From a virus, in the IMG/VR virus record IMGVR_UViG_3300025012_000066, positions 1-64,000 of that record: a DNA stretch of 64,000 bases; one strand, given 5' to 3'. This document shows, one piece after another, positions 2,808 to 48,426 of this stretch. The notes beneath the pieces were generated by a model, which had not been told where the DNA came from, did not search any database, and saw nothing but the letters and a program-made list of their open reading frames with translations. Position 1 is the stretch's first letter, and each line of letters starts with the position of its first letter. A program made the translations under genes and the position numbers.

Positions 2808-2965
2808 TAGCAAATCATTGGACGCTTTGATCTTGCTATTAAATATTTTTTGTGAGAACAGTCTACTCCTATGGATTGTTCTCACTTTTTGTATGTAAAA
2901 ATTTAGAACATAGGAGAAATGGTTTGTTTGGTCTATAAGTAATAAATAAAACATAGGAGAGTGAT
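2808..2965 (+). promoter_or_regulatory. structured HEG leader: two hairpins, loop complementary to the SD
   Basis: GTGAGAACAGTCTA-CTCCTA-TGGATTGTTCTCAC at 2852-2885; TAGGAG at 2911 and 2954. Confidence 0.65.
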
Positions 2966-4378
2966 TTGTTAATGGGAATTAAAATTGATAAACAATTTGG
3001 TTTAGATAGGCTTAAAGAACATTGTAAAATATATAATAAAATACTTACTAGAGAAGAATTTAAAAAATACAACATTAATCCTTCATATAGTTGGTATGAA
3101 AGAAATTTCGGTGATTATAAAAATGCTTGTTATGAAGCAGGATTAATAGAGAAACCATTAACCGAAGAAGAAAGAATTAAGATATCAGTTAATGAATTAA
3201 TAAAATTGGCACATAATTTAAATAAATGTCCAACTGTTGCTGAATATGAATCTATTAAACATAGAGGATACCAAAGGCGTGATTTAGAAAAACATTTAAA
3301 TATGAAATATAATGACATTTGCAGAAAATATATTCCGCAATATAAGTTAAATAATGATATGGATGTGTCTAAAGAAACGATATTTAAAGATATGAAAGAT
3401 ATGCTGATTAAGAATGGTAGAGCTATGACATTTGATGAAATGAAAGAGCAAGGTCTTCATTATTCTTACAGTATCTTTGAATCAAAATGCAACATGCTTT
3501 TTAATGATATTATATTACATCTTGGATATGTCCCTATTGGTACTACAACCTCAACAAGAACAAGAGACGAAATGTTAGATGATTTTAATAAATTATTTAT
3601 AAAATTAAATAGAATTCCAACAGTAAAAGATTTAGATAAAAATAATGGAGAAACATCAAATTGGTCTACATATATTAGACATTTTGATTCTATAGAAAAT
3701 ATATGCAAAATACTAAATATTGATTATGATAAATATTATATCAATAAAAGTCCAGGAAAAAGTTGTCTTGATAAAAATGGTGGAAAATGTAGATCATTTA
3801 TGGAGTGTATAATAACCAATTATTACATAGATAATAATATTGTATATGAAAAGGAACCTTCCTATAGTGATTTTATAGAAAACGACACAAGAAGATTAGA
3901 CTGGAAATTAACTTTAAATAATAAATTTTACTACGTAGAGTACGCTGGAATGTACTATCCAAATAAAATGTATAGTCATATAAATGAGAAGTATGTAAAT
4001 AAAATAGATAACAAAATAAAAGACTTAAAAGATGTTGGAAGATATGAAGAATGTCTTTTTATTTTTCCAGAGGATATTAAAACAAAAACATTAAAGGAAA
4101 TATTTGAACCTTTTCTTGGTATTGAACTTGAAGAAAATAAAAATGGATATAATATTACCATTGTTGAGTATTTCAATAAAACAGACAAGGAGCTTTTAGA
4201 TATTATAATGAAACATAGCACTAATGCTAATATTTTACCAAGTACCTCAATTATTTCAAGGAAAGAGGGAGGTGCTTATAATGAGATTAGAAAAAGGTTT
4301 AAGACATATAATAACTTTGCTCTACATTTCGGGATGACAACAATGTGTACACCTAGACAGAAAATTTTTCAGATGTAA
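2966..4378 (+). CDS. free-standing homing endonuclease-like protein (helical repeats + PD-(D/E)XK-like domain)
   Basis: Repeated PTVAEY/PTVKDL..YIRHF units; RSFME..YEKEP..LDWKL..YVEYAG. Confidence 0.7.
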   Translation: MLMGIKIDKQFGLDRLKEHCKIYNKILTREEFKKYNINPSYSWYERNFGDYKNACYEAGLIEKPLTEEERIKISVNELIKLAHNLNKCPTVAEYESIKHRGYQRRDLEKHLNMKYNDICRKYIPQYKLNNDMDVSKETIFKDMKDMLIKNGRAMTFDEMKEQGLHYSYSIFESKCNMLFNDIILHLGYVPIGTTTSTRTRDEMLDDFNKLFIKLNRIPTVKDLDKNNGETSNWSTYIRHFDSIENICKILNIDYDKYYINKSPGKSCLDKNGGKCRSFMECIITNYYIDNNIVYEKEPSYSDFIENDTRRLDWKLTLNNKFYYVEYAGMYYPNKMYSHINEKYVNKIDNKIKDLKDVGRYEECLFIFPEDIKTKTLKEIFEPFLGIELEENKNGYNITIVEYFNKTDKELLDIIMKHSTNANILPSTSIISRKEGGAYNEIRKRFKTYNNFALHFGMTTMCTPRQKIFQM

Positions 4379-4413
4379 GTAATAAATAATAATTGAAAGA
4401 AGGAATATAAATA

Positions 4414-4893
4414 ATGGCAAATAAAAAATTAACGCTATCTGCAATTAAAAAGGACAATGCAAAATTTAATGAGAAAATGACAGTTCAAATTAAGGACGGT
4501 AAATATGAGATTATTGTTAATAAATACTTTAAAAAGACAGACACCGCAAAACTTTTAGGAGACTATATTTTACTTACTGAGCAATTAATTGAAAGTGGAG
4601 CAAACATAGACATTACTTCTAATGAAATATTCCTCTTTCCAATTTTACTCGTCAAATACATGACAAACATCCCTCTTCCGGAAACAGCATTAGAATTAAT
4701 AGCCTATATACAAGAATTAATCAATGCTGAATTATTAAATGAAATTATTGACGCATTACCAAAAGATGAAGTAGATAAGGTTGAAGGATGGATTAATGAC
4801 TCATTTAAGAATATGCCACAAGTATTAGAATTAATGAAGAAACAACAAAATTTTGGATTAGAGCAAGAGGCGATTGAAGTTGGGGATATCTGA
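4414..4893 (+). CDS. putative tail assembly chaperone
   Basis: Size and position upstream of the tape measure gene. Confidence 0.5.
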   Translation: MANKKLTLSAIKKDNAKFNEKMTVQIKDGKYEIIVNKYFKKTDTAKLLGDYILLTEQLIESGANIDITSNEIFLFPILLVKYMTNIPLPETALELIAYIQELINAELLNEIIDALPKDEVDKVEGWINDSFKNMPQVLELMKKQQNFGLEQEAIEVGDI

Positions 4894-5338
4894 TAAAATA
4901 AATAAGATGCTAAATTCTACAGCTTTTCTTTCAATAGTAAGAGACATTGAAAAAGAAGCAACCCAAGACCTTAGAGATGCTGTATTAAAATTTCATTATC
5001 AAGCTTATTCCCCAAAGGAATACGAAAGGACTTATCAGTTTTTAAACTCAATTCGTAGCGAACTTACTGTTGGAGGAAATAGTATTGAAATGAAAATATT
5101 TTTTGACCAAAATTTAATGAATCACAAATCTGTTGTAGACGGAGATGGGACTTTTGTCCCTCCCCTACTTTATTTCGGTCATACTCAATCTGGATATGAA
5201 GGAGTTAATGATTATTTTCATGATTATCCAGGCAATAAAGATTGGTTAATTGAAACAGCAGAAAAAATAAAACTTAATGTCAGTATGAAATTCAAAAAGG
5301 CAATAGTAACAATAATAACTAATAAAAATTATAGATAG
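4874..5338 (+). CDS. phage tail-region protein
   Basis: Position in the tail module; YSPKEYERTY motif. Confidence 0.55.
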   Translation: MKLGISDKINKMLNSTAFLSIVRDIEKEATQDLRDAVLKFHYQAYSPKEYERTYQFLNSIRSELTVGGNSIEMKIFFDQNLMNHKSVVDGDGTFVPPLLYFGHTQSGYEGVNDYFHDYPGNKDWLIETAEKIKLNVSMKFKKAIVTIITNKNYR

Positions 5339-5424
5339 TCTTATTTTGTTTTGAGAGGTTATAATTCTTCTTTGTTTCTGGTATAATATTTTTATAAATT
5401 AGAAATTAAAAGGAGTGTTTTAAA

Positions 5425-5817
5425 ATGAAGAAAAGTAAATATCTTGTTTATTTTATTATCGTAGTTTTATTATTGTCGATAATGGGTTGCTCGGATAAAA
5501 ACGCTAGTAAAACAACTTATAGACCGACAGTAACACAAGAAAAAATAGAAGCGGATTTAAAAGAAGCGTATTCGACAATGAATGAGATAGTTGATTATGA
5601 ACTCAGCAAAGATAACCATACACTTACACTATATGTTACAGACGCGATGAAAATTGGAACATATCAACAAAAGAAAGATTTATTGAATAAAATGGCAGAA
5701 TATTTCAGTTTGACAGTAAGAGAATTTGACCAAAGTAAAGTAAATGTATATGTTAAATCAAATTCTTCTAAGCAATTACTTTATTATTACGAGGGTGGTC
5801 TTATAGGGGTTAAATAA
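5425..5817 (+). CDS. lipoprotein (moron-like)
   Basis: MKK + hydrophobic stretch + lipobox SIMGC; TGGTATAAT upstream and a hairpin/T-tract downstream. Confidence 0.75.
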   Translation: MKKSKYLVYFIIVVLLLSIMGCSDKNASKTTYRPTVTQEKIEADLKEAYSTMNEIVDYELSKDNHTLTLYVTDAMKIGTYQQKKDLLNKMAEYFSLTVREFDQSKVNVYVKSNSSKQLLYYYEGGLIGVK

Positions 5818-5892
5818 GCAAGAAAATATTAAACTCCCTCTTTTTATTAAGAGGGTATTTTTATGCCCTAAATTAAAGAGAGGTGATTAAAT

Positions 5893-8800
5893 TTGGCTAA
5901 TAAAGATGATATGTTTGGGATAGGTATAAAATTAACTTGGACTCCACAAGAGTTAACAAGTCAAATTAATGCAATACAAAATTACATAACTAAGAACCAT
6001 AATCTAAAAATAAATCTTAACTTAAACGAAGCTACATTAAAGGGATTGGAAAGATTAAGTCAACTTTCTAAATCTGCTGCAAAAGAACTTAATGCAATAA
6101 AAGCACCAATGTTTAATCTTGATAACCCAAATCAAGAAGCACAAAAATATATTGGAACAATAAATAATTTAGTTTCTACTTTTCAAAAATTTAAAGGTCA
6201 AACTTCAGTTGTTTATGATGAGTTTGGTAAGGTAAGTTTAAAGGTTGATACAGCAAGTGGTGCTATTAAAAGATATACATTGCAATGGGATGAACTAACT
6301 CAAAGACTTTCAAGAACAAATATGAGAAATATCGATAATTCTAATGTAAATATTGAAAGAGAATTACAATTGCGTCAGCGATTAAATGCTCAAATACAAA
6401 ATAATGCTGAATCTTTGCAACATTATCTTAGAATTCAACAAATGAACTTAAACTCTTCAATGAGTAGATTTGAAACTCAAAGAACCGGATTGTACAATGT
6501 TGATGAATTAAATAATTTAAGAACTAGATTAAATCAATTAACTCCAACAACAGAAAATTTAAGAAGAAATGTAGGATTATTAAGAGCAGAGTTTAATGCA
6601 TTAAACACAACTGCAATTGCCAATGGAATAAATACCGTAAATAGAAATGCGATGTCTCTAGGAGAAAGTTTAAAACTTGTAGCTTTTAAAATGCTTACGT
6701 GGCTTGGGATGGGAAATTTAATTTTTGGAACTATTTCCCAAATAAAATCTGCAGTGGTTTTTATCAAGGATCTAGATTCTGCCATGATTAATCTAAAAAA
6801 AGTTACAAATGAAACATCTACTGCATATAAAGAATTTGAAAATGATGCAGGTAATTTAGGTAGAGAGCTTGCTAGAACGACAATAGAAGTGGTCAAGGCT
6901 ACGGCAAATTTTGCTAAAATGGGATATACGCTACGAGAAGCAAAGGAATTAGCAAAAGAAGCACTGATTATGCAAAATGTTGGTGATATTGAAAATGTTG
7001 ATAAAGCAACTCAATATTTAATTGCAACATTAAAAGGATTTAATTTACAAGCAACCCAAAGTGCAAAAGTTGTCGATATTATGAATGAAGTGTCGAATTT
7101 ACACAGTATTACGGTAGATGGATTAGGAAAAGCTTATGAGCGATCTTCGGCAGTAATGGCTCAGGCAGGAAATACTATCGAAGAAACTACTGCATTATTA
7201 ACTTCCGCGAACGCCGTGGTCCAAAATCCGGAAAAGGTAGGAAATGGATTTAAAACTTTAGCACTCAGACTTAGAGGTGTCGATGAAGAAGCAAAAGAAT
7301 TATTTCCAAAATTAGAAGCAGATTTAAATGCTGTTGGAGTTCAGTTAAGAAATGTTGATGGTGGATGGAGAAGCACTTATAATATTCTTAAAGATTTCTC
7401 AAAGGTCTATATGCAAATGCCAGATATGGCTAGAAGTAAGCTTCTTGAAGATATGTCAGGTAAATATCAGGCTAATATTTTAGCTGCCACGCTTCAGAAC
7501 TTTTCCGAAGCGGAAAAGACATTGGAAGACGCATTGACATCTGTAGGGTCAAGTGCTCGTGAAAATGAAATATATTTAACCTCAGTTGAAGCAAGAGTAC
7601 GACAATTTAAGGTAAGTTTAGAGGAATTATACAAATTATTTCTCTCTTCAGACTTGCTTAAAGGTGGCATAAGTGTTCTTGGAGGGCTAGTTAGTGTAAT
7701 GAGTGGTGTTTCTTCTGTTTTTGGTGGAATTCCAGCATTAGCTGGGGCAGCTACTACATCAGTTTTAGTATTTTCTAGTGCTCTTAGAACATCAATTTAT
7801 GAAACCATTAGATTAAAAGTTGAACAATATGGGTTTCTACGTTCTATTCCTGCTTTATGGTTAACTGCTACTGGTGGAGTTAGAGGATTTTCGGGAACTT
7901 TAGCATTTTTACGCACTAGTTTAACATCAACAAGAATTGCAGTAATTGCACTACAAACAACTATGACATTAGGATTAAGTTTAGTTATTACTGGTGTAAT
8001 TGCATTAGTTCAAAAATTAGTAGAAGCTCTTGGTAGATCAAAAAATGCAATGGATGAACAAAGTCAAGCATTTAAAGATACTTTAGATAACTTGGGTAAT
8101 CTTACTTCTGATTATGAAAAAGCAAATAAGCTAATTGCTATATATAATGAATTATCTAAAGTAACTAATAAAACAGTCGATCAAAAGCAGAAATTGGTTG
8201 ATGTACAACAACAATTAGCACAACTTTTTCCTTCATTAGTGACAGGTTATGATTTAGAAGGTCAAGCAATTTTAGATTTGGATTCAAAACATGATGATCT
8301 TATTGCTAAAAAGAAAGAAGAAATCAACTTAGAAACCAAACGTCTTTCTTCTCAATTTTATCAAAATCAAGCGATTTGGATTCAATCTATGGTTGAATCT
8401 CAGAAAGAATTAAATAAATTAAAAATAGAACAAAAAGACATCCAAGATAATATAGATAATATTAAAACTAATACTAGTCTATCAGAAGATGTGAAGGAAT
8501 CTTATTTAGTTGGATGGTATGAAAAGTTCGATGCGGTTAGTGGAAAAATATCTGATACTCAGTTAAAATTAAATAAGGTAAAAACAACTTACGATCAAGG
8601 TTTAACATCAACTGTTAAATATGAATTGGAGTCATTAAAACTTTCTAATGATACCATAAACAATTTTTCTGATAATTATTTATCGCTAGTTGAGGTTTTA
8701 AAGAATAGTGGTAATGATCCCTCTGTTGTTTTGAGGGGAATATTTGAGTCGATAAAGAAAAATTCTGATATACAAAATGTCTTTAAGAATTGGACTGATG

Positions 8801-11800
8801 CTCAAAATAAATATAAAGAAGGATCTATTGAAGCTGTTGAAGTTGAAAAGTTACATAAGAAGACAATTGATGATTTAACTGAATCACTAAAAAAATCTAA
8901 TCCTGAATTAAAACCAGAAATAGTTGATTCGATTGCACAGTCTTTTATTTTATTAGGAAATGTTACTCCCAAAGTTAAAGATGGGATAGATTCTACAGCA
9001 CAATCTTTTGCTACTCTCCAAGAAACCCTATCCGATTCCTCTTCTGCAATCTCAGAGATACAATCTGCTCTTGATTCCTATAATGAGACAGGGAAATTTA
9101 GTCTTGATAATATTATCAAATTGTCTTCTACATATCCTAAACTCCTTGGAATGCTAGGCGATGAAAAAGCTATCCGCGAAGAACTAACAAACATTATAGA
9201 ACAAGAACAAGAAAAATCCAGACAAGCTTATATTGTTATGCTCAATGGAAGTGTTAATTTCTATAATAAAAACATTGAAGGTATACAAAAATTTGTCGCT
9301 GGATTAGATGGTGCTCGCGAAGTTGATTTATCTGGAGCAAAATCATTAGCTGAAGCAAAATTAAAAGTCGAAAATGAACTAATGAAGAATCTAGCAGGAA
9401 TGTGGTCACAATATTATGATGCCCAAGGCAATATGACTAAGGCTAATATTATTGATGGTGGAAGAACTATTGTAGGCCAAGATGGTAAGGAAACCTATAT
9501 TACTCCTGAAATGAGAGCACAACTTAAGGCGTATTATGATGCTTCTTCAGCAGTTAAGAAGAAGTTTGATGATATTGCAATGAGTGGAACAAAAAGCATA
9601 GACTTCTCCAAACTCGGTATGTCTAAAAGTGACTCTAAGAAAAAAGAAGAAAAACTCCTCTCAATAGAATCCACAACCCAAGCACTCATCAATCAAATCC
9701 AACAAGAATATCTCCTCCAAAAAGCCAAATCAGATTCAATCCAAAAAGACCTCTCTCAAGCACAATCCCAAAAAGACTATGCAAAAACTCTCGAACTGAC
9801 CAACTCTTTAATTTCCTCGCAAGCTCAAGAATTATCTCTTCTTTCTACAGCTCGCTCCAAAATAAACCAAGCAAAAGATTCTGCAATATCTTCTGCATCA
9901 TCTCAATTTGGTAACATCAGTGAACGTTGGTTTACTGGAAATGATAATCAAGAAAGCGTTGCATATATTGAAGAACACAATAAAGCATCAGAAAAAACTC
10001 GTAAGATTATGGAAGAAACTTTTAAATCACTTCAATTATTAAGAAATGCTTGGATGTCTAATAAATCTACTATGGACGAAAATGCTGAATCATCTAAATC
10101 CCTCAAAACATCCCTAACTCAAATCCAAATAGATAAATTTAACCAATCTATCTCATTCCTTGACGATTCAATTTCTCAATCAAAAGCAAATCTAGACCTC
10201 TATTCCACATCTTCCCAAGAATATTCTAATGAGCAATCCTATCAAATCTCTCTTCTTCAACAAAAGAAATCAGCTATTGATTCTGAAATATTATCTTTAA
10301 AATCCCAACTTGTTAACACAGAATTAACAACCGAAGCAACTGTATTATTAAGCGAAGCATTAAAAACTTCTATATCAGATGGAATAAATGCTCAAAAGGC
10401 ATTATTAGATGCAAAATCCTCAATTGCGGATTCAGTAATATCAACAATGAAATCATCCCTTGAAACTCAAAAAGATATTGCATTAAAATCCATAGACTTA
10501 CAAATGGATGCAGAAGATAAACGTCATACTAACGAAATAGACAATATTGAAAAAGAAACAAAAGAGACTGCAAAAAAATACAAAACTATTACTGATGATA
10601 TTGATGCCCAAACTGAAGCAGAAGTAGATCGTCATAAAATAGCAACTGATAATATTGATGCAGAAATTGAAACCGAAGAAAAAAGACATACATCTGTCAT
10701 AGATAATATTGATGCAGAAATAGCTAAACTAAATGAGCAAGCAGATACGGATTCTTATAATACCAAATTAGCTAAAGATCAAAAAGAAGCCCAAGATATA
10801 CAGGATAAAATAAATATATTGTCTCTTGATAATTCTTTAGAAGCTAAAGCTAAAATTTCCGATTTAAATGATGAACTTTCTGAAAAGCAAATTGCTATTG
10901 CAGATTTTCAACAAAAGCATAGTCTTGATTTGCAAAATAAAAATCTACAAAGACTTAAAGATGCAGAAAATACTAAAAATGATTTGCGGAATAAGGATTT
11001 TAAGAATTTTAAAGACGTAGAAGATACTAAAAATGATTTAATAAACAAAAATCTTAAAACTTATAAAGATGCTCAATCTGATATAAATGATTCTCAAAAT
11101 GAATATTATCAAAATATGAAAGATGCAGAAGATAATAAAAATAAAATCATAAAAGATGGTTTAGATTTGCAGAAAAAGAATCAAGAGTATTTTTGGAATG
11201 AGCAAATTAATAATGAAAGATATTTTGCCAGTCTCCGCACTCAAATAATAAATGGCAATATAGACCAAATGAAGACAAAGTTAACTTCATTTTTAGCTGA
11301 TTTTAAGAATATGAATGAGGAAACTGCAAAAGCACTAGGTGTAAGTTGGACAGGATTGCAAAGTTTGATTGATGGGGTTCAAGCTTCTCAAACTAACTTA
11401 AATGTTATTTCTAATGGAGTAACTACGCCTTATTATCCTGGCACGACAATGAATGGAGTCCCTGTAAGTAATAACGGTAGTTCTAGTTCATCCTCTAGCT
11501 CCGGAAGTAGTTCTACAAGTTCATCTAGTGGAAATTATGTTACATGGAACAACGGTTCTTCTGGGTGGAATGCACATGATTCTAGTGGTAACATAATTGC
11601 GTCAGGAGTAGCTAATCCACCTAAATATGCTGAAGGAGGAGAAACTCAATCAACTGGTATGCATTATTTAGATGGTAAAGTAGGAAAACCAGAAAGAGTA
11701 TTATCTCCGGTTCAAACTACAAGCTTTAACCAACTCGTAAAAGATTTACCTTCGCTCACTACTGTCATGGATAATTTAATGAAAAATAACCTACTGATGA

Positions 11801-23905: not shown

Positions 23906-23931
23906 TCATGTATAAACAAAAAATAATAAAT

Positions 23932-24043
23932 ATGGTTGATAAATAAGGTTGCAAACTTATTTATTGTAATAAAAGAGCTATGCTGATACATGGCTCTTTT
24001 CCAATTTCTAAAAACTTTTGTCAGAAAGGATGATTAAATTATA
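23932..24043 (+). promoter_or_regulatory. structured HEG leader
   Basis: AAAAGAGCTATG-CTGATA-CATGGCTCTTTT at 23971-24000; TGTCAG at 24019 abuts SD AAAGGA. Confidence 0.65.
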
Positions 24044-25036
24044 ATGACGAGAAAAAAGACGAACGAAGAATTTATTAATGAATTATATAATTTAAGAGGT
24101 AATCAATATGAAGTATTAGAAAAATATAATGGGAGTCGTATTAAATTATTAACTAGACATAATTGTAATGAATGTAATAATTATGAATGGGAAGTTTCTC
24201 CTTATGATTTAATAAGTAAAGAAGTGCAATGTCCAGTTTGTCAGCATAAAAAACAAGGAGAGATGAGAGCAAGATCGCAGGAAACTTTTGAATCACAAGT
24301 TTTTAATGTTTTTGGCGATAAATATATTATTAAAGGAAAGTTTAAGAATATTGACAAACAAATTGAAGTTTATTGTACTATTTGTAATAAATCATGGAGT
24401 CCTATTCCTTATCATCTATTGAATGGACATGGATGTCCACATTGTAATGGAAATGCTCAAAAAACAACAGATGAATTCACTCAACAAATAAAAGATAAAC
24501 ATAAGAATAGATACACAGTAATTGGTAAATACATAAATTCAAAAACAAAAATAGAAATATTATGTAATATCTGCAATGAACCTTGGTTAATATTCCCTAA
24601 TAATTTAATAAGAGATTATGGTGGATGTCCAAATTGTAACCTTAATAGAGCAGAATTAGCAATTAAAGAATGCTTAACTCAAAAGCAAATCAATTTTAAA
24701 CCTCAATATAAATTTGATGATTGTCGTAACATTAAACCATTACCTTTTGATTCAGCAATATTAGATGAATATAATAATGTAATAGGTTTAATCGAAGCAG
24801 ATGGGCAACAGCATTTTGAACCTGTGAGATTTGGTGGTATATCGCAAGAAAAAGCAGAGAAGAATTTTATAGAAACTAAAAAGAGGGATAAGATTAAAAC
24901 GGAATACTGTGAGAAAAATCATATCCCCTTACTCAGAATCCCATATTGGGAGTTCAACAACATAGAACAAATAATAAATAATTTCATCCAAGAACTATCA
25001 CCCCAACAAGATAATTCTATTTTAATTGCCAAATAA
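24044..25036 (+). CDS. Hef-like homing endonuclease (zinc-ribbon repeats + DUF559/Vsr-like nuclease)
   Basis: Three CxxC..W..CPxC repeats; QYKFDDC..LPFD..IEADGQQH..RIPYWE. Confidence 0.85.
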   Translation: MTRKKTNEEFINELYNLRGNQYEVLEKYNGSRIKLLTRHNCNECNNYEWEVSPYDLISKEVQCPVCQHKKQGEMRARSQETFESQVFNVFGDKYIIKGKFKNIDKQIEVYCTICNKSWSPIPYHLLNGHGCPHCNGNAQKTTDEFTQQIKDKHKNRYTVIGKYINSKTKIEILCNICNEPWLIFPNNLIRDYGGCPNCNLNRAELAIKECLTQKQINFKPQYKFDDCRNIKPLPFDSAILDEYNNVIGLIEADGQQHFEPVRFGGISQEKAEKNFIETKKRDKIKTEYCEKNHIPLLRIPYWEFNNIEQIINNFIQELSPQQDNSILIAK

Positions 25037-27792: not shown

Positions 27793-27954
27793 TAAAACAA
27801 ATGCCAATTAGAGGTATAAAATAAAAATTACACCTCTTTATTAACCTATTAAATTGGTCAATATTATTTTATTCAGTTTTGTATGTATTTGACAGCCAGA
27901 TATTGCCCATCTGGACTGTCATTTGGGAATTACAAAGCGTTAACTTTGTAAGAC

Positions 27955-28392
27955 TTGTCTGAATTATACATCAAGAAAGGGGCAATTGTCAACATGAAAA
28001 ATATAATTATGGAAGAGGTGTTGAATTTGAGCATTGAGCCAGAAATAAAGGAAGTTTTGGACGACCATAAAAAAATATTAGAGGAGCATACAGATAAGAT
28101 TCAGGATCTTCAAATTGATAATGCTAGTACAAAGGAGCAATTAAATTCGATTAAAACACAAATGAATGATGTAAAGGAAATTGTAACAGAATTTAAAACT
28201 AGTTATTTACAGACAACAAGTTCAATGATGGGAACATTAAGCCAAGTGGTAATTAATACTAGCAATAATAATAAAGAAATTGCAACAACCACTAATAATA
28301 ATAAAACTCAAATTGCACTCAAGGTTTTAGCTATTGTTGGTGGTTTAATTGTTGGGTGGTTTGCTTTAAAGGGAGTCACTATTAGTATTTAA
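27955..28392 (+). CDS. coiled-coil protein with C-terminal TM helix (XhlA-like lysis accessory)
   Basis: Lysis cassette position; C-terminal LAIVGGLIVGWFAL. Confidence 0.65.
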   Translation: MSELYIKKGAIVNMKNIIMEEVLNLSIEPEIKEVLDDHKKILEEHTDKIQDLQIDNASTKEQLNSIKTQMNDVKEIVTEFKTSYLQTTSSMMGTLSQVVINTSNNNKEIATTTNNNKTQIALKVLAIVGGLIVGWFALKGVTISI

Positions 28393-28887: not shown

Positions 28888-29301
28888 TCTGTGTGAATCA
28901 GATTATTGTGGGCCTGAAAGTGTTGATATAGTAAGGTTTAAAATGTGTCTGACTTACAAGAATTTACTATTTTAAAGAGTTAGTTCACTAAGGGCATTGG
29001 ATGTAATCCAAGCAAATGCTAATTTTAAAGGTATGGTCAAGAGAGGGATTTATGAGAATAAATTTCCTCTCTTTTATTATGTCTAAATTTAAATAATCTT
29101 CCAAAAATCACTTAGAGAATAGTGAAAACTATTCTAACACATTTTCTTTCATTCTTATTTTATTTAGTAAGAAACGGCGAAGAGAAGAGTTAGGATTTTC
29201 TTGACTTTTCTCTAAGTGATTTTTGTATATGGAAACAATTCTTCGCCGTTTTGTTTTTGTATTGAAATTACTAATAAAAATAAGAAAGAAGGAAAAAGAA
29301 A

Positions 29302-30498
29302 ATGAGTAATGGTAATGTATTAGTAGAGTCCCAATCAGCAAGAGAAGAATTAGTAGTCAAGGTAAGTGAGGAAAGAGTTGGAGAAATCTTAAACAAGGTA
29401 AAAGGTTTAGTTTTGTTGGCAGATGATACACACGTGACGACAGAAATGGTTGCGAATTTTTATGAAGTTGGACTAGAAGCAATAAACAGTTTGATAAAAG
29501 ATCATCGTAATGAATTAAATACTGATGGGTTAACGGTTTTAGAGGGTGAACAACTAAAGTCCTTTAAGAACATCTGTCAAATTGAGTCAAGGGCAAGAGC
29601 TTTAACGATTATTCCTCGCAGAGCAATACTTCGTATAGGTATGATTTTAAGAGATAGTATTATCGCTCAACAAGTTAGAACTTATTTACTTGATGTTGAA
29701 GGTAATACAAAAGTAGAAGATAAACTCATTGCATTAGGACAAGAAACTAACAATATAATATCAATATTAAATGAAAAGGTAGATAATTTACAATTGAGTA
29801 ATAATACACTTAGACAAAATAATAGTGTAATTATTACAGACAATGAAGAATTAAAACATAATGTCTTAATGTTAATAACTAAAGTTGATGAATTATTAGA
29901 GCAACCTCTTTTCAAGATCCACTCTAATTCTAGTAGATTATATGACATGTTAATTATAAATGACTTTATGAATGCAATGGAATCATTAGGAATGAAAAAA
30001 TCATATGATAAACATTACGCTTTGTTTAATAAAGAGTTTGAGAATTGGACAGGAATAAATTTTGGTGATAAGAAAATAAATAAAAAACAATATTGGATTT
30101 CATATTATGGAATTGAATCAATAAAGCAATTTATCGTTGGTATTGCACAGAAAATAATTATTAAAAATGATAATGGATATTGGGTTAGCAAAGCAGGTAT
30201 TTATAGCAATAAAGTTGAATGGAAGAAAATATTAAATTCCTTTGGCAATAAATGTGCTTATTGCAGTAGCGAAGAAATAATTCTAGCAGAACATATTGTG
30301 CCACAAAGTAGTGAGGGATCAACCGATTGTATTCATAATTTAATTCCAAGTTGTTCTCTTTGTAATGATAGAAAAGGTACAATGGATATGAAGTCATGGA
30401 TAGAACTTAAAAGAAAAGAGGGAATGACTGATGAACAATATGAAAAAATTAGAGATCATTGGAGAAAATATCATATTGTTTTAGATTTAGATATTTAA
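29302..30498 (+). CDS. antirepressor-like DNA-binding domain + coiled coil + HNH endonuclease
   Basis: VTTEMVANFYEV...RRAILRIGMILRDS; CAYC..EHIVP..NLIPSCSLCNDRKG. Confidence 0.8.
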   Translation: MSNGNVLVESQSAREELVVKVSEERVGEILNKVKGLVLLADDTHVTTEMVANFYEVGLEAINSLIKDHRNELNTDGLTVLEGEQLKSFKNICQIESRARALTIIPRRAILRIGMILRDSIIAQQVRTYLLDVEGNTKVEDKLIALGQETNNIISILNEKVDNLQLSNNTLRQNNSVIITDNEELKHNVLMLITKVDELLEQPLFKIHSNSSRLYDMLIINDFMNAMESLGMKKSYDKHYALFNKEFENWTGINFGDKKINKKQYWISYYGIESIKQFIVGIAQKIIIKNDNGYWVSKAGIYSNKVEWKKILNSFGNKCAYCSSEEIILAEHIVPQSSEGSTDCIHNLIPSCSLCNDRKGTMDMKSWIELKRKEGMTDEQYEKIRDHWRKYHIVLDLDI

Positions 30499-30963: not shown

Positions 30964-31008
30964 AATATAACAGATACAAAAAATAAATAAATTGTAAACA
31001 CAAATTTT

Positions 31009-31131
31009 ACTAGCAAGAGGTAGTGGAAGTAATTACCCACTATTAGATGTAACTCGCACATCGTTCTTGCTAGTTTTTATAATTACGGGCGAGTATACTA
31101 AAATCAAAATAAGAAAGCGAGTTGTTTATTA
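31009..31131 (+). promoter_or_regulatory. structured HEG leader
   Basis: Outer stem ACTAGCAAGA/TCTTGCTAGT; GATGT-AACTCGC-ACATC; GCGAGT(T) at 31089 and 31117. Confidence 0.7.
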
Positions 31132-31872
31132 ATGGAAGGAAATATTGAAATTAAAGAGGAAGAAATTCTCGAACCCTATGGTTTTATTTATGTGACAACC
31201 AATATGGTTAATGGCAAAAAGTATATTGGTCAGAAAATGTTTAAAAAAGATTGGAAATATTATTTAGGTAGTGGAGCATATTTCTTAAGGGCTGTAAAAA
31301 AGTATGGTAAGAAAAATTTTAGTAGAGAAATTATTGCTATTGCATATTCAAAAGAAGAGTTAGATATATTAGAAGTTCAATTTATAAATCACCACAATGC
31401 AGTTAATAGTACAGATTATTATAACCTTGTTGGAGGTGGATATGGAGGGAATGCTGGAATACCTGCGTCAGAAGAACAAAAGAAGAAAATGAGCGATTCT
31501 CATAAAGGGCATGAAACATCAGAGGAAACAAGAAAGAAAATTGGAGAAGCAAGAAAAGGTCATTTAGTATCAGAAGCAACTAGGGATAAAATAAGCAATA
31601 CTCTTAAAAATTACATAATAACAGATGAACATAGAACGAGTTTAAGTGAATCTGGCAAAGGACGCATCTTTTCAGAAGAAACAAAATTAAAAATAAGTGA
31701 GTCACATAAAGGAAAGAATATGGCTTTAAATTCTGAACAAATAGTAGAAATTAGAGAAAAATATGCAACTGGAGAATATAAACAGTATGAATTAGCAGAA
31801 ATATATTTTGTTACAAAACAAACAATCAATAATGTTGTAAATTATAAATATGCATATAAAAATGTATCGTAA
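31132..31872 (+). CDS. GIY-YIG homing endonuclease with NUMOD3 repeats and C-terminal HTH
   Basis: GFIYVTTNMVNGKKYIGQ; repeated SEETRKKI-type units. Confidence 0.92.
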   Translation: MEGNIEIKEEEILEPYGFIYVTTNMVNGKKYIGQKMFKKDWKYYLGSGAYFLRAVKKYGKKNFSREIIAIAYSKEELDILEVQFINHHNAVNSTDYYNLVGGGYGGNAGIPASEEQKKKMSDSHKGHETSEETRKKIGEARKGHLVSEATRDKISNTLKNYIITDEHRTSLSESGKGRIFSEETKLKISESHKGKNMALNSEQIVEIREKYATGEYKQYELAEIYFVTKQTINNVVNYKYAYKNVS

Positions 31873-40567: not shown

Positions 40568-40661
40568 AATAAATATTCATTATGTAAATATAAAATATAC
40601 AGGAGAGAACTTGCAAGTTTATGGGTAGCTATCCCTCCCTGATCAGGAGGAGAGAATTGAA

Positions 40662-41912
40662 TTGGGCAAAAATTTTACTATTGACTATGAAATTATTAGT
40701 AGTTTTAAATTAAAATTGGTGGGAACAGAACCTAAAAACGCAAAACAAAATTTTACAATGGAAGACAAAGAGGGATATATTTATTTTGGCAATTTAAGTG
40801 ATATGAAACAAAAATTGAAACAGAATCATTCTCTGAGTAGATTTCATACATCAAATTCGCATACTATAGATAATATAAAACTATGGTGCAAATTAAATAG
40901 TGTTGAATTGGAATTAGTAAGTACAATATATTTAAACAACAAACAAAAACTGGTGTTCAAAGACAAAGAAGGATATTATTATCTTTTATCTTTAGATTGC
41001 CTGCGAAGAAATTCGACGGCTTCTAGATTTCACAAATCAAACTCATATACAATACAAAATATAAAACTATGGTGCAATTTAAATAATAAACCATTTAAAT
41101 TAATTAGTAAAATATATGTTGGTGCTGATGATAAATTAGAATGGCAATGTTTAAAAGATGGTTGTGGCGAAATATTCAAAATGAAATGGAGTCATATTTA
41201 TGATAACCACGGTTGTGGGTTCTGTCATGGCAAACAAATTGGTTTGTCAAATTGTCTTGAAACTTTAAGATTTAAACTTTCTAAAGAATGGCATCCTATA
41301 AAGAATGGTGATTTAACTCCATTTGATGTAACAGTAAGTAATGGAGAGTATGCTTGGTGGAGTTGTAAAAAATGTAATCATGAATGGGAAGCAGTTATTG
41401 CTAGTAGAAGTAGTGGAATTGGTTGTCCTAGATGTGCTGAAATTAATGCAGAATCTCATTTACAGAAGAGAACAAGACTATACATAAATGAATGTGGATA
41501 CGATGTATTACATGAAAAAGAATGCACGTTAAATCCTAAAAATATAATAAACCCTCCTGTAAATATTATAAGCAATAAACAGAGAAGAAAGGGGATATTA
41601 AGATATGATAATGAAATAATAATTGATAATAGACATCTTTTTATCGAAGTTAACGGACAGCAACATGATTTAGAGGATAATATATTTAATATAAAATCTT
41701 CTAAAAAGCACAATACCACACCAAAAGAAGAGTTAGAATATCTTAAAGCTAGGGATAAATTTAAAGAACAATATGTACATATGCAAGGAGAAAATTATTA
41801 TTACTTAGTATTGTGGTATTACGATTTTGATAAAGAGGATACATATAAAAAATTGATAGATGATAAGATAAATGAGGTATTATCAAACCTTCCACTCCCA
41901 AAAGCAATATAG
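40662..41912 (+). CDS. homing endonuclease-like protein (tandem repeats, zinc ribbon, DUF559-like nuclease)
   Basis: Duplicated DKEGY..SRFH..NIKLWC unit; EWHPIKNG..WWSCKKCNHEW..GCPRC; YD..IEVNGQQH. Confidence 0.8.
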   Translation: MGKNFTIDYEIISSFKLKLVGTEPKNAKQNFTMEDKEGYIYFGNLSDMKQKLKQNHSLSRFHTSNSHTIDNIKLWCKLNSVELELVSTIYLNNKQKLVFKDKEGYYYLLSLDCLRRNSTASRFHKSNSYTIQNIKLWCNLNNKPFKLISKIYVGADDKLEWQCLKDGCGEIFKMKWSHIYDNHGCGFCHGKQIGLSNCLETLRFKLSKEWHPIKNGDLTPFDVTVSNGEYAWWSCKKCNHEWEAVIASRSSGIGCPRCAEINAESHLQKRTRLYINECGYDVLHEKECTLNPKNIINPPVNIISNKQRRKGILRYDNEIIIDNRHLFIEVNGQQHDLEDNIFNIKSSKKHNTTPKEELEYLKARDKFKEQYVHMQGENYYYLVLWYYDFDKEDTYKKLIDDKINEVLSNLPLPKAI

Positions 41913-43617: not shown

Positions 43618-43667
43618 GATTAAGGGGTAGTTTAAAGTAAAATAAAAATAAAGGATGGTAATGTAAA

Positions 43668-43910
43668 ATGAATGAATCAAGAGTTGAATTGGAGAAGCAT
43701 GTATGGGATACTTCTGAAACCGAATATGACAGCACAAAGGAATTAGCAAATTTTCTAAGCAATATGGATGCTAGAATTAAAGTGTTAGAAGAATTTGTAG
43801 AAAATTTGCAAAAAGAAAAACTAAAAGAAAAACTAAAAGAAAAACTAGATACGAAGAATATATCAAAAATAGTAATTAATGAGATTAATAAAGGATTTGC
43901 AAAGACTTGA
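43668..43910 (+). CDS. hypothetical coiled-coil protein with a 12-bp x3 repeat (KEKL)3
   Basis: AAAGAAAAACTA x3 at about 43812-43847. Confidence 0.6.
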   Translation: MNESRVELEKHVWDTSETEYDSTKELANFLSNMDARIKVLEEFVENLQKEKLKEKLKEKLDTKNISKIVINEINKGFAKT

Positions 43911-44032
43911 TAAATAAATCCATTTGAAAGTTATAAAAAATGAGAGGGCGGCAACCCTCTCTTGCATGAAATTTAAGCTATGTGGCTAGGGCGTTTTACA
44001 AGAACGCTCATTGAGAGGAGGTGAAAAATAAA

Positions 44033-44345
44033 ATGAAAATATATAAAGTTACTCAAGAAACAAAAATTATCAACTATCAACCAGTAGAAGAAAATCATGC
44101 TCATTTCTACACAAAATATAAAGGAAAATTATCGCCATGGAGTTAATTTTGAAAAAATGTTCTTATCAAAAGAAAACGCAGATATAGTTTATAATGAAAT
44201 ACTTGATGAAATAATGACTGGATCAGACGGAATAATAAAGAGTGGCAACACCATTTATTATGTAAAGAATGTTTGGGAACTAAATAAACATCCGTATTCA
44301 ATTATTAGTTGTGCCTGTGTTCAGGAAGTTGAAATTGCTGAGTAG
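44033..44345 (+). pseudogene. hypothetical gene, probably frameshifted
   Basis: Strong RBS before ATG 44033 (stop at 44146); the overlapping frame 44097-44345 has no RBS. Confidence 0.55.
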
Positions 44346-44401
44346 TAAATTAGTAAGTTTTAGGGTTGTGACCGACCACTATAATAAAGGAGGAAATTAA
44401 A

Positions 44402-44908
44402 ATGGAATTAAAAGATTTTGAGAGATATTTGGAATTAGTAAAAATTAATGAGGAATATATTAACATATGGAGAGAAACAAGAAGTGATGAAAACTATGAA
44501 AACTATGATAACGTGTCTAAAACAAGGGAAGAACTAAGTAATTTTAAAAATAATCTATTAAAGTTTGTTTTTGGAAACCAAAGTAGCATAGAAACAGTTA
44601 TAGATAAGCTTAAATTTAGACTTAATCGTTTTAATGAATATGCTGGATCTGATGAAAATAGAGCATTTAATGAAATAAAAATGGTTAAGGAAATATTGAA
44701 TTTACTTGAGATGTATGATTGGAAACTTATGCACTCAGAGTATTATACAGGAGAAGTTAAACAAGTTGCTATTTGGGAACAAAATGGAGAAGGATTAATT
44801 AGGAGACATAAAGTTTGGAATGTAGTTGATGCTATAAATACTACAAAAGATTCAGGGAGAATTATTGGTAAAGCAATGGGAAGCATTTCTGAAAATATTA
44901 ATAATTAA
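44402..44908 (+). CDS. hypothetical protein
   Basis: RBS AAGGAGG. Confidence 0.75.
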   Translation: MELKDFERYLELVKINEEYINIWRETRSDENYENYDNVSKTREELSNFKNNLLKFVFGNQSSIETVIDKLKFRLNRFNEYAGSDENRAFNEIKMVKEILNLLEMYDWKLMHSEYYTGEVKQVAIWEQNGEGLIRRHKVWNVVDAINTTKDSGRIIGKAMGSISENINN

Positions 44909-44944
44909 GGGTTGCGTCCAAACGCAAGAAAGAAGGAAATAACA

Positions 44945-45967
44945 ATGAAAGAAATTATGATTAAAACAATCAAGGAAGATATCACATATATGTTGGCAGA
45001 ACTAGGTAATATGCGTAAAGCTGAAGTCAATAAAGATACAAAGAATAAATTAATGGAAAACTCAGGTTTAAGTCAAGATTCAGTAGGATATCGTGTCTAT
45101 TTTAAGGATTTTAGACCTTATAGAAAAATGGTTGATTCATTATCAAAACTATATGATAGTCTTAATCAAATGTATAAATATAATATGTTAAAAGGAGATG
45201 AAGAGTTTGTAGAATATATTGTATCATCTCTATTTGCAGAATCTAAAGAATTACATAAGTTAATGGAAACTTGTAAAGAAGATTATGATCAGTATAGATG
45301 TATGAGCGATGCTTATGTTAAACTGACTGATAAAATATGTAGGATTGAGAGGGATATGCCATATGATTTGATCAATCAAAAGGAATTATTAGATTTAGAG
45401 GCATCTTTAAACATAGTCCTTGCAGAATCAGAAGATATTGTTAATATTGCTGAAAGTTTAGGAATCTTAACTGAAAAACATAATTATCAAAACGCATTAT
45501 ATTCTTTAAGTGTAGAATTAGATAATTGGATTGGTAAAGTGTCATATCCTATTAAAATTAGTAAAGATCAAAGAAATTTTATCAAAACATTATTTTCAAA
45601 TGTTCAAGGGGCAAAGGGTATTTTGGTTAATAAAATTTCATCTTTTAAACAAGATGGTCTGTCATTAAATGAGTATAAATATGTAAAACCAATGTATATT
45701 GATTGTGTTTGTAGTGAAGGCAAAGAAAATGATAAAGTGATAGCATACGTTGGCAATGAATTAATTGCTTTTAATTCTAGAAAACATATGCAACAACCAA
45801 TGAGCATAATTGACTATGCTGAAATTATTCATGATGTAGCCATCCAAAAAGGATATGAAATATTTATTAATACTCAAGGATTTGGAATGAGTTTGTATGA
45901 TCATCTTATAGAATTTGGAGATTTGAAGGTTAGTAAGTTAATACAAATGGTTTTAGGTAAGAAATAA
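44945..45967 (+). CDS. mosaic protein carrying a copy of the tail-protein internal repeat
   Basis: TEKHNYQNAL...ELDNWIGKVSYPI matches TEKTNYQNAL...ELDNWIGKSSYPI in 12885-17330; ATG 44945 follows an RBS. Confidence 0.8.
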   Translation: MKEIMIKTIKEDITYMLAELGNMRKAEVNKDTKNKLMENSGLSQDSVGYRVYFKDFRPYRKMVDSLSKLYDSLNQMYKYNMLKGDEEFVEYIVSSLFAESKELHKLMETCKEDYDQYRCMSDAYVKLTDKICRIERDMPYDLINQKELLDLEASLNIVLAESEDIVNIAESLGILTEKHNYQNALYSLSVELDNWIGKVSYPIKISKDQRNFIKTLFSNVQGAKGILVNKISSFKQDGLSLNEYKYVKPMYIDCVCSEGKENDKVIAYVGNELIAFNSRKHMQQPMSIIDYAEIIHDVAIQKGYEIFINTQGFGMSLYDHLIEFGDLKVSKLIQMVLGKK

Positions 45968-45983
45968 AAAATATAACAAATAC

Positions 45984-46011
45984 TCCTAACTGCTTTAGTT
46001 GGCAGTTAGGA
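45984..46011. terminator. hairpin between convergent genes
   Basis: TCCTAACTGC / GCAGTTAGGA. Confidence 0.65.
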
Positions 46012-46047
46012 ATATTAATATAATATTAATATAATATAGTATATAAA

Positions 46048-46296
46048 TTATTCAGGTGTTTGAAATTTATCTAAATCAATATTGATTTCTAAAAAGAACA
46101 TAAGATATCCACAATCTAAACATACATAATTAATAGGATACATAGGCATTGTAATCTCTTTTTCTGGTGTTTGAAATTTCATGGTGGCATTTATGTTCAT
46201 AGTATCTACTTTATTACTTTTGCAAATAGGGCAAGATTTAGATTGATTTGATATTGTTTCTTTGGTAATTTTACGAATGTTTTGATTTTCTTCCAT
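46048..46296 (-). CDS. small zinc-ribbon protein
   Basis: CPIC...CLDCGY; RBS GGGAGG. Confidence 0.7.
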   Translation of the reverse strand: MEENQNIRKITKETISNQSKSCPICKSNKVDTMNINATMKFQTPEKEITMPMYPINYVCLDCGYLMFFLEINIDLDKFQTPE

Positions 46297-46356
46297 ATGA
46301 TTGCCTCCCTATGTTTGATAATATTGATTAGCATGTCCATTTTGTTTGATTAATAA

Positions 46357-47176
46357 TTATCTCAATCTAATCTTCTTAACATTAATTAAACAATCTGGAT
46401 CAACAATAACCTCACTCTCACCCCTCTTGTCAATATAAGCAAGAACATCTTCAATTTTTATCATTGCTTCATATAATTTCCCATTATCAGGATCAAATCT
46501 TGTAGCAAAGAATTTAGCTGCATTAATATCAATTGTCCAAGAAAATGCTTTCTTATAAGGCGTAGATTCAGTGTTTTGTCCTCGATATATTTTAACAAGA
46601 CCACTACTATCTACTTTTAAAATTTTTCTAAAATCTTCTTTTGGTTTGTACTTAAATATATTGAGAAAGAAGTTTTTATTAAGTTTTGAAAAACCATATT
46701 CAGAACGTCTATAAATGTCCTCAAAGCACTTATATTTTTGTTCATCAGGTATATTTTCAAATGATTCAATATAGAAATCTAGAGTAATCTTCTTCTCTAT
46801 AAGGAAAAATAATTTATCATATTGTTTTTTAGAGATGTATTTGTTCATACTCTCTTCAACTTTTTCGATTCTTAATTTAGTTTGATAAAGGGTTAAAACT
46901 TTGATATCGAATGCATCTATATCTACCATGACAGGGCCAGAGAGGTATGCGTAAGGCGTTATGAAAGTTATCATTGAAGTAGAACCTATCTATTGGCTTA
47001 TCAAGGTGTTTAATGGCATTTAGGATGATTTCATATAGAGGTATTTCGTATTCAGTTTCTTCTATTATTTTGAGTCTAAATTGGTTGTTTTGGAATCGAG
47101 AAATAGGAATTAGTAAATCTTGGTTGACGACACGGTGAGATAGGTTGAATAATTTGTTTATGTCATTAGTTTTCAT
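46357..47176 (-). pseudogene. ADP-ribosyltransferase-like protein (R-S-E type), frameshifted near 46965
   Basis: IYRG...SWT...A..FA...ESEV; removing one T joins DRFYFNDNF to ITPYAYL. Confidence 0.6.
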
Positions 47177-48041
47177 TTCTGTATTCTCCTTTAATTATAA
47201 AATCAATGTTAACAATTTCAGTATTAAATTTAGAATATAGTTTCTTACATAATTTATCTGATTCGATTCCAAACAGAGATGAATCAATGCCTAACACCTT
47301 AATAATTTCTTTAAACTGTGGTAGATTGATTTTTCTTTTACCTTTCTCAATATTATATAATTCATCTAATTTTAGATTGGAATTTTTAATAAAGTTAGAT
47401 GTAGATATTTTCTTTAACTTTCTTACTCTTTTAATATTGAATCCTATATAATTGCCATTTTTTATAGCTTGATCAATTTCTAATTGAATATAGAAGTTTT
47501 TTGTGCTGATTTGTTTTTCTTTTTCGGTTAGAGTTTTTCCTTGATAACTTTTACGTTCTGTAATTGGTTTTGATTGTTGATTATTTTGATTAAGTTTCTT
47601 GTAGAAACTTTTATCATATGAGTTTTTAATATTTCTTTTAATACTTTCTTTTTTACATTCAGGACAATATTTGCCGAATTGATCTACAAAGACTCCACAA
47701 CCACCTAGACATAGTTTTGGTGCTTTTGATTTTCGGTCTATTTTATCATTATATGGTTTTTGATGTATACGAGCTTTTTCATAGCATTTTCTACATTTAA
47801 AATATTCCGTTGAATCTAATCTTGTGCCACAAGTAAAACAGATTCTTAATTGTTTACAGTTTTCTTTTTTTGCTTGATAATCTTGTTTGATAATTAATCT
47901 GCATTTTTCACAGTGTATTTTTGTTTCTTTAGGTGATAGAGGTTCACAACATTTAAAACAGAGACGAAGTTTCTTTCTGATTGAGTGTGTTGGGTTTATA
48001 CTTGTATTTTTTGGTGTTTGATTAATTGTATCTTGTGTCAT
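47166..48041 (-). CDS. multi-CxxC zinc-finger + XRE HTH protein
   Basis: Several CxxC pairs; GFNIKRVRKLKK...IEKGKRKI; RBS GGAGG before ATG 48041. Confidence 0.75.
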   Translation of the reverse strand: MTQDTINQTPKNTSINPTHSIRKKLRLCFKCCEPLSPKETKIHCEKCRLIIKQDYQAKKENCKQLRICFTCGTRLDSTEYFKCRKCYEKARIHQKPYNDKIDRKSKAPKLCLGGCGVFVDQFGKYCPECKKESIKRNIKNSYDKSFYKKLNQNNQQSKPITERKSYQGKTLTEKEKQISTKNFYIQLEIDQAIKNGNYIGFNIKRVRKLKKISTSNFIKNSNLKLDELYNIEKGKRKINLPQFKEIIKVLGIDSSLFGIESDKLCKKLYSKFNTEIVNIDFIIKGEYRNEN

Positions 48042-48310
48042 TTGTGACAACCTCCATTTCGACAATGATGATTATATTATAGCATATTTAGGGGTTTTGT
48101 TCAAATTTGAGTTTTATTATTATCCAATAAAAGTATGTTTTTATTTTGTTTGAAATAGTGGGTTTGAAAGTGGTTTGTAGTAAGGGTTGTAGAGGTGGGA
48201 ATTGTTGGTAATTGGATGATTTGGAGTTTATTAGTTATAATTTAATATTTTTTATTTTTAAAGAGCTGTTGAGGCTCTTTTTTGTTTTGTTTAGTGAAAT
48301 TGAATTTAAT

Positions 48311-48426
48311 ATGGTTTTCAATAAGTTAGGCCAAATTTATTGAAGTAAAACTAGGACAATCATGCCAATACATAGTTGTCCTTATTCCATTTGTGTCTCT
48401 AAATATTGGAAGGAGAATGATAAATA
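48311..48426 (+). promoter_or_regulatory. structured HEG leader
   Basis: AGGACAATCATG-CCAATA-CATAGTTGTCCT at 48353-48382; TATTGG at 48404 abuts SD AAGGAG. Confidence 0.7.

Follow-up and report, generated by a model that had tools for sequence, protein, structure and literature searches.

The window analysed here comprises the first 64,000 nt of a virus record that consists of one contig of 75,469 bp (IMGVR_UViG_3300025012_000066). The record is a phage-like element of 29% G+C, and a search of cultured phages for kin of the window returned no near relative. The subject of this report is the leaders that precede its homing endonuclease genes (HEGs). An initial annotation had proposed that four such leaders, lying before unrelated HEGs, share one RNA architecture in which a hairpin loop is complementary to the region of the ribosome-binding site (RBS), and that this is a pseudoknot-based element of translational control that travels with HEGs of different nuclease families. 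Six open reading frames (ORFs) were examined, five of which have the look of free-standing homing endonucleases, the exception being H1:

2966/2972-4378, + strand: H1, with two HNH_repeat domains.
24044-25036, + strand: H2, with a DUF4379 treble-clef finger and CapR, PHROG 'HNH endonuclease'.
29302-30498: a sixth nuclease-like gene, encoding an HNH-domain protein.
31132-31872, + strand: H3, GIY-YIG of the SegE type with NUMOD3.
40662-41912, + strand: H5, with DUF4379, in a PHROG 'homing endonuclease' family.
48427-49947, + strand: H4, with DUF4379, in a PHROG 'homing endonuclease' family.

Only the HEG-associated repeat is present in H1; Pfam detected no catalytic nuclease domain, either here or in its homolog at L034 (L-numbers denote homologous loci throughout). 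The description of the genes as unrelated is apt for H1 and H3 when set against the rest. Within H2, H4 and H5 it is only loosely true: their mutual similarity is marginal (BLAST E 0.008-0.4), yet they have the DUF4379 zinc finger and PHROG families in common.

All four of the hairpins first noted, with their loop complements, are present in the window:

2852-2885, + strand: leader 1, terminator-like hairpin (dG -18.6) with the anti-Shine-Dalgarno loop CTCCTA at 2866-2871; complement TAGGAG at 2911-2916 and 2954-2959.
23971-24000, + strand: leader 2, hairpin (dG -14.2) with loop CTGATA at 23983-23988; complement TGTCAG at 24019-24024, with one G-U pair.
31051-31057, + strand: leader 3, loop AACTCGC; complements GCGAGT at 31089-31094 and GCGAGTT at 31117-31123.
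48353-48382, + strand: leader 4, hairpin (dG -10.9) with loop CCAATA at 48365-48370; complement TATTGG at 48404-48409.

As had been observed, two of the leaders (1 and 3) carry the loop complement twice. The ATG..CAT described beside the loop occurs in three leaders of the window and is not conserved in homologs, which keep only the closing G-C pair. To set a chance level, 611 stable hairpins with loops of at least 6 nt were taken from this genome and two related complete phage genomes. A loop complement of at least 6 nt with at most one G-U pair was found within 90 nt downstream of 27% of these hairpins; the proportion was 14% when only Watson-Crick pairs were allowed and 3% for complements of at least 7 nt. 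Dinucleotide shuffles of each short target gave p = 0.04-0.27 per leader; on targets of 40-80 nt such shuffles are too conservative to inform (p = 0.43 for TAAGGA). With such complements at 14-27% of the stable hairpins of these AT-rich genomes, the window alone is only suggestive of loop-partner pairing. A stricter scan demanded a partner no more than 30 nt from a start codon with a Shine-Dalgarno (SD) sequence. Four matches emerged in this genome, at H2, at H4, at a lysis-cassette gene and within a long ORF, against 0-1 for a reversed-loop control. When the same unbiased scan was applied to two complete related phage genomes (G001 and G002), only the leader of an H4 homolog exceeded the reversed-loop control.

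It is the homologous leaders that are decisive. A metagenome scan with an H4-family protein alignment yielded 80 loci (47-88% identity), and 76 distinct upstream regions were examined. Approximately 30 of the 76 have one layout in common with leaders 2 and 4, here termed type A. Read 5' to 3', this layout consists of a conserved TAATATGG, a hairpin 1 of ~30 nt, G-TAAAAC or TAATTA, a hairpin 2 whose stem varies and whose loop has 6-8 nt, TTCC(C)ATTT, the loop complement, a purine-rich SD and ATG; the conserved motifs include TAATATGG / AAATTTTA. The hairpin 2 loops fall into 14 distinct classes (including CCAATA, CTGATA, TTTGCC, TTGTCA, TTCCTTA, TCGATTA, TTGCCA, CCTTTAA, TCTTTA, CCACTAA, CCACTA, CTACTA and CGATAT), and an exact complement of its own loop lies just 5' of the SD in each of the ~30 leaders. 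With one representative taken per distinct loop, each loop was found to fit its own partner, as had been claimed for the window: a mean of 6.4 contiguous pairs was obtained with the own target and 4.5 with the targets of others, and none of 100,000 permutations reached the observed sum (p<=1e-5).

Moreover, six seeds served to build a covariance model (R1) restricted to hairpins 2 and 3, and the loop-partner pairing was not fitted. R1 recovered both type A leaders of the window, at 48353-48429 (63.5 bits, E 4.5e-11) and 23971-24046 (31.4 bits, E 5.6e-4), and no other convincing site there. In the 17-row alignment derived from it (A7), the helix between loop and partner is 92% paired, with 5/7 pairs changed on both sides. 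Hairpin 2 is 98.7% paired (9/10 pairs changed on both sides) and hairpin 3 is 91% paired (3/5). When the 3' partners were slid, the whole structure of 22 pairs was only 46-52% paired, and 0/500 shuffles reached any of these measures. Covariation between loop and partner in homologous leaders had been named beforehand as a test of the proposal, and it was found both in the own-versus-cross permutation and in the A7 pair counts. The comparison of homologs indicates that the pairing of the loop with the RBS region is real and covarying. Alignment of the leaders by MAFFT misplaced the variable hairpins, and RNAalifold accordingly found no structure.

The two type A copies of the window are built as follows:

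23930-24046, + strand: type A leader of H2, with the P1 5' strand ATGG at 23932-23935 and ATG at 24044.
23937-23966, + strand: hairpin 1 of the H2 leader, TTGCAA in its loop.
After hairpin 2 (23971-24000), + strand: linker of the H2 leader, TTCCAATTT.
24015-24028, + strand: hairpin 3 of the H2 leader, CTTT (24015-24018), loop TGTCAG (24019-24024) and AAAG (24025-24028), the last being the start of the SD AAAGGA.
48310-48429, + strand: type A leader of H4, with P1 formed by ATGG (48311-48314) and CCAT (48387-48390), and ATG at 48427.
48316-48345, + strand: hairpin 1 of the H4 leader, GGCC in its loop.
48396-48416, + strand: hairpin 3 of the H4 leader, TCTCT (48396-48400), loop aaaTATTGGaa with TATTGG at 48404-48409, and GGAGA (48412-48416), which is the SD.

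The partner sits inside the loop of this third hairpin in 30/30 type A leaders. Its 5' arm is a pyrimidine run (TCTCT, TTTCTT, CTTT etc.) and its 3' arm is the purine SD or the first half of it (GGAGA, AAGAAA, AAAG etc.). Since the partner is located in the hairpin 3 loop, the type A contact is predicted to be a loop-loop kiss. A conserved ATGG 5' of hairpin 1 and CCAT 3' of hairpin 2 could form a closing helix (P1) of 3-5 bp that would make a three-way junction. The variants AUAGG/CCUAU, AUAGG/CCUGU, AUUGG/CCAAU and UAGGG/CCCUA look compensatory, with exceptions, and the junction is probable rather than established. Thus, the tertiary pairing at the heart of the proposed pseudoknot element stood up, but in type A it takes the form of kissing loops in a probable three-way-junction fold and not of a simple H-type pseudoknot. 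Pairing of the linker TTCCCATTT with the start-codon region ATGGGA was also considered and ruled out, as the motif is kept whether the ORF begins ATGGGA or ATGTTA. A near-consensus sigma-70-like sequence, TTGTCA-N16-TATAAT (11/12), lies at 24018-24045; it shares bases with the kissing partner TGTCAG, and its 3' end falls on the H2 start codon. In consensus scans, promoter-like sites were no more numerous than in shuffled sequences.

Type A leaders vary in a modular fashion. Hairpin 1 and the set of hairpin 2 with its partner swap independently, one hairpin 1 (L117, L132, L148, L175) being found with four loop/partner sets. Likewise, where the window (48240-48430) is compared with L115 (1310-1503), which has an 88%-identical HEG in the same genomic context, hairpins 1 and 2 are entirely different. 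From these comparisons, the leader modules appear to recombine.

The four leaders do not share a single architecture, as had been supposed; instead, at least three classes are present: type A (leaders 2 and 4), type D (leader 3) and type E (leader 1). The idea that the same kind of leader stands before different nuclease families was borne out. Type A leaders are found before H4- and H2-family genes; those of type D stand before GIY-YIG, HNH_repeat and H4-family genes and also before an HNH-like remnant. Leader 3 has the following parts:

31008-31134, + strand: type D leader of the GIY-YIG HEG H3, with P1 formed by CTAGCAAGAG (31010-31019) and TTCTTGCTAG (31064-31073), and ATG at 31132.
31019-31044, + strand: P2, with the palindromic loop GTAATTAC.
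Loop at 31051-31057, + strand: P3, GATGT/ACATC with loop AACTCGC.
31089-31094 and 31117-31123, + strand: partner site 1, GCGAGT, and partner site 2, GCGAGTT, the latter inside the SD-like AGAAAGCGAG.

Leader 3 is predicted to form a clearer three-way junction than type A. Relatives were sought in the protein neighbourhood and by an exact-pattern scan for P1, which gave mostly chance palindromes and only L215 and L236 as relatives. At L236, before a GIY-YIG homolog, the loop is TGCTCTC with GAGAGC and GAGAG(A), both sites having changed along with the loop. The loop TACTCGC is matched by GCGAGTA and GCGAGTT at L158 (before an H4-family gene), and ACTCCAA by TTGGAGT and the SD GGAGG at L034 (before an H1-family gene). 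In a four-sequence alignment, P1 (10 bp) is 97% paired with only one pair (4-65) changed on both sides, P3 is 93% paired, and the helix between loop and site 2 is 86% paired and includes a single compensatory pair. Few as these sequences are, they give a consistent picture. The loop of L215, which precedes an HNH-like remnant of 27-29 aa, is identical to that of window leader 3. Here (10268-10468, minus strand, IMGVR_UViG_3300025030_000004) that remnant, MEEIKTKVCKICGKEK..., is all that comes after a complete type D leader, and so the leader has apparently outlived a decayed nuclease gene.

Leader 1 and the leader of H5 complete the set:

2808-2974, + strand: type E leader of the HNH_repeat protein H1, opening with a hairpin (2808-2838) homologous to P1 of the type D leader at L034.
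2911-2916 and 2954-2959, + strand: pseudo-SD TAGGAG and real SD TAGGAG of the type E leader; start TTG at 2966 or ATG at 2972.
40598-40664, + strand: type B leader of H5, with the conserved palindrome AACTTGCAAGTT at 40608-40619 and a near-palindromic hairpin GGGTAGCTATCCC at 40623-40635.
40634-40639 / 40645-40650, + strand: SD-masking hairpin of the type B leader, CCTCC(C) / AGGAGG.

The same loop and double TAGGAG as in leader 1 are found at L002, before an H2-like gene. Covariation is not to be expected in leader 1, because the SD is constrained. The leader at 40598-40661 had been put forward as a reduced variant of the others, but it represents a conserved class of its own, in which a CCTCC/GGAGG hairpin masks the SD directly. 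Its layout (GGAGAACTTGCAAGT, a 12-nt palindrome and the CCTCC/GGAGG hairpin) also occurs before H4- and H2-family genes (homologs L123, L139, L154, L169, L173 and L004). In type B leaders, AACTTGCAAGTT is followed by a perfect or near-perfect 12-nt palindrome of varying sequence, GCGTAGCTACGC, GTGTCGCGACAC, GTGTGATCACAC or GGATACGTATCC (window 40608-40635; L123, L139, L154, L169, L173). The central four bases of these palindromes are symmetric too, which is not needed for an RNA hairpin.

The same design was also found before a gene that encodes no nuclease:

27890-27921, + strand: hairpin of a putative lysis-cassette leader (27890-27996), with loop ATTGCCC at 27902-27908.
27980-27986, + strand: partner GGGCAAT, overlapping the SD AAAGGGG; ATG at 27994.

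The gene starting at 27994 encodes a 132-aa coiled-coil protein with a C-terminal membrane helix and lies directly after an Amidase_3 endolysin gene. In its single homolog (L213, 470-590, 88% protein identity) TTGCCC/GGGCAA is kept while the stem is entirely different. Judged by this putative lysis-cassette gene and its homolog, the loop-to-SD design is not restricted to nucleases.

A second feature of the leaders is a self-complementary loop away from the RBS. The hairpin 1 loop is self-complementary in 7/8 distinct type A loops, compared with 0/13 of the RBS-pairing hairpin 2 loops, and the P2 loop is so in 5/5 type D leaders. These loops differ in sequence: TTCGAA, TTGCAA, GGCC, ATCGAT, TCATGA, GTAATTAC, TGATCA, TAATTA, TTAGCTAA and TCGCGA (window 23947-23956, 48327-48334 and 31027-31036; loci L115-L191, L002, L006, L034, L158, L215 and L236).

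What these leaders do is suggested by where the partner lies. We consider it likely that they repress the initiation of translation, constitutively or conditionally, by masking their own RBS through a sequence-matched tertiary contact. In type A, the AUGG/CCAU closing helix would probably join hairpins 1 and 2 into a three-way junction, leaving the hairpin 2 loop (6-8 nt) to kiss the loop of the intrinsically weak hairpin 3. The kiss (~-4 kcal/mol) would stabilise that hairpin, the SD would become double-stranded and initiation would be low. In types D and E an anti-SD-like loop would pair with the SD itself and with another, SD-like site upstream of it, and in type B the plain CCUCC/GGAGG hairpin would do the same job. 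By itself, hairpin 3 is of marginal stability (-2.4 and +1.3 kcal/mol for the two copies of the window) and would therefore need the kiss to form and no activator to open. Plain SD-masking hairpins of type B at equivalent positions in the same HEG family also point to masking as the shared function. We infer that the leader is transcribed in full, that it acts by repression, and that the purpose is to limit a potentially harmful nuclease and, once, a lysis protein.

Several observations weigh against this interpretation. The kissing duplexes are short (nearest-neighbour -4.1 and -4.4 kcal/mol in the two type A copies), and minimum free energy folds of the 3' parts of the leaders give competing pairings. 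P1 of type A, with its few base pairs, has modest support (own versus cross permutation p=0.003). The site that better fits the loop in types D and E is usually the upstream one, outside the RBS, and the RBS could be mostly free. A pseudoknot adjoining the RBS activates translation in IncI-alpha repZ (PMC8383071). No lock was found before the H4-family genes of Clostridium phage BG3P and two Staphylococcus Twort-like phages, which have promoters or terminators there. Finally, R1 and a further model, R2, find both type A copies of the window and had no match in five viral records; both are narrow and miss known members of the family (L028/L115, L029/L137), and the distribution is for that reason poorly sampled.

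Three other accounts of the leaders were weighed against repression by masking. An unlikely one is a two-state or concentration-sensing switch, in which the loop would shift back and forth from the RBS to a decoy site, or leaders would bind one another through their self-complementary loops, making translation dependent on a trans factor or on mRNA abundance. Such a switch would account for the two partner sites kept in types D and E, both of which covary with the loop, for the frequently better match of the upstream site and for the self-complementary hairpin 1 and P2 loops. However, type A has a single partner site, and the self-complementary loops could reflect a palindrome at the DNA level.

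The chief mechanistic rival, somewhat less likely again, is that the loop-partner contact activates translation, pairing beside the SD so as to open or organise the initiation region and recruit the ribosome. The geometry recalls repZ, where a hairpin loop pairs immediately 5' of the SD and translation is pseudoknot-dependent (PMC8383071), and the type A partner abuts the SD without covering it. On the other hand, hairpin 3 at the energies given above is too weak to need an opener, the loop of types D and E pairs with the SD itself, and the equivalently placed type B leaders are plain SD-masking hairpins. Nor is any leader peptide or antisense partner conserved, the mini-ORF after the first TAGGAG of leader 1 being absent from L002.

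That the leaders have no RNA function, being terminators of the upstream unit or DNA repeats for protein binding with chance loop complements in AT-rich sequence, is very improbable: T runs do follow the hairpins of leaders 1 and 3, that of leader 1 is flagged as terminator-like, and chance complements are common (14-27%, with per-leader shuffle p of 0.04-0.27), but 14 loop/partner pairs stay matched in homologs, compensatory changes appear on an alignment not fitted to the pairing, the partner keeps its fixed place in a hairpin loop beside the SD in every type A leader, type A hairpin 2 is followed by the conserved TTCC(C)ATTT and not by a U run, and the reversed-loop control gave 0-1 matches against 4 in this genome. 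A plain terminator plus chance is rejected because of the loop-partner covariation. Reading the two hairpins as a group I intron was also rejected, since there was no Rfam intron match and the ORFs on either side are unrelated genes.

A homing endonuclease has to be made in amounts that let it spread, yet not in amounts that damage the phage or the host. To our knowledge, how this balance is set outside T4-like phages is largely unknown. Structures that sequester the RBS are an established means of controlling T-even HEGs and certain late T4 genes, the lysozyme gene e among them; such hairpins mask the RBS of I-TevI, I-TevII, I-TevIII and segB, of mobE in Aeh1, and of the T4 late genes e and soc (PMC2988022). 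The leaders described here resemble them in that a cis RNA structure before a free-standing or intron-borne nuclease gene is proposed to mask the SD and limit translation, with the same logic also at a lysis gene. The means differ. In the T-even case one stable local hairpin holds the RBS, whereas in type A a distal loop would kiss a weak RBS hairpin via a copy-specific 6-8-nt 'address'; an SD in the stem of one stable local hairpin was found only in the type B leader at 40598-40661 and not in types A, D or E. A late promoter inside the T-even hairpin gives unmasked transcripts, whereas none was identified here in consensus scans. There is no sequence similarity between the two groups, and the present leaders occur in low-GC Firmicutes-type phages.

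At repZ/repA of IncI-alpha and IncB plasmids, as here, a hairpin loop pairs immediately upstream of its own SD (PMC8383071). The repZ pseudoknot activates translation; a leader peptide has to be translated for it to do so, and an antisense RNA blocks it (Asano and Mizobuchi 1998, reviewed in PMC8383071). A stable RBS-sequestering structure opened by leader-peptide translation was not found in the present leaders, in which hairpin 3 is weak and no leader ORF is conserved.

The initial annotation recognised no named family, and this was upheld: there was no Rfam 15 match to the window or to six homologous loci at the gathering score. The whole window gave only a chance-level sRNA match elsewhere at E<=1, and the leaders alone gave only chance miRNA, snoRNA and CRISPR-repeat matches at E<=10, int-alpA (RF02996) not being among them. 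Full-text literature searches returned T4 hairpins and unrelated pseudoknots only, with no paper in the library searched describing such leaders. Searches of cultured phages with the leaders by blastn gave nothing useful, and no cultured phage carrying such leaders was found. The covarying kissing-loop leader fold, real by the evidence of its homologs, is by these searches uncatalogued. If the masking interpretation is true, a kissing-loop RBS lock would be a new natural design for translational control; it could help as a marker in the annotation of mobile nuclease cassettes and offer synthetic biology a small programmable part.

Kissing complexes with fully paired loops of 6-7 nt are well known from ColE1 RNA I/RNA II, HIV-1 TAR/TAR* and HIV-1 DIS, where the stems stack on the loop-loop helix and the complexes are intermolecular or artificial. 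In contrast, the kiss at the RBS here would be intramolecular and is proposed to regulate initiation. It is the self-complementary second loop that resembles the HIV-1 DIS dimerisation loop and hints at RNA-RNA dimerisation, for which we know of no report in bacterial or phage messages. Dimerisation here is conjecture only. A broader scheme built on it, which we regard as doubtful, would make the leaders an addressable system of RNA control: the copy-specific loop/partner would lock each mRNA, the self-complementary loops would dimerise, translation of the HEGs and of the lysis gene would be gated by mRNA concentration or the stage of infection, and the module would be exchanged between nuclease genes by recombination.

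Two further observations concern the nuclease genes themselves. Relative to its 62%-identical homolog (L034 1093-2877), H1 is without the N-terminal 136 residues, which amount to one further HNH_repeat, and a remnant of the missing residues was not detectable upstream of window 2966-4378. The leader of the HNH gene at 29302-30498 (29172-29251), in which a clear loop-to-SD complement was sought and none found, consists of a 12-bp GC-rich stem, AAACGGCGAAGA/TCTTCGCCGTTT, with further hairpins inside, and then a T run.

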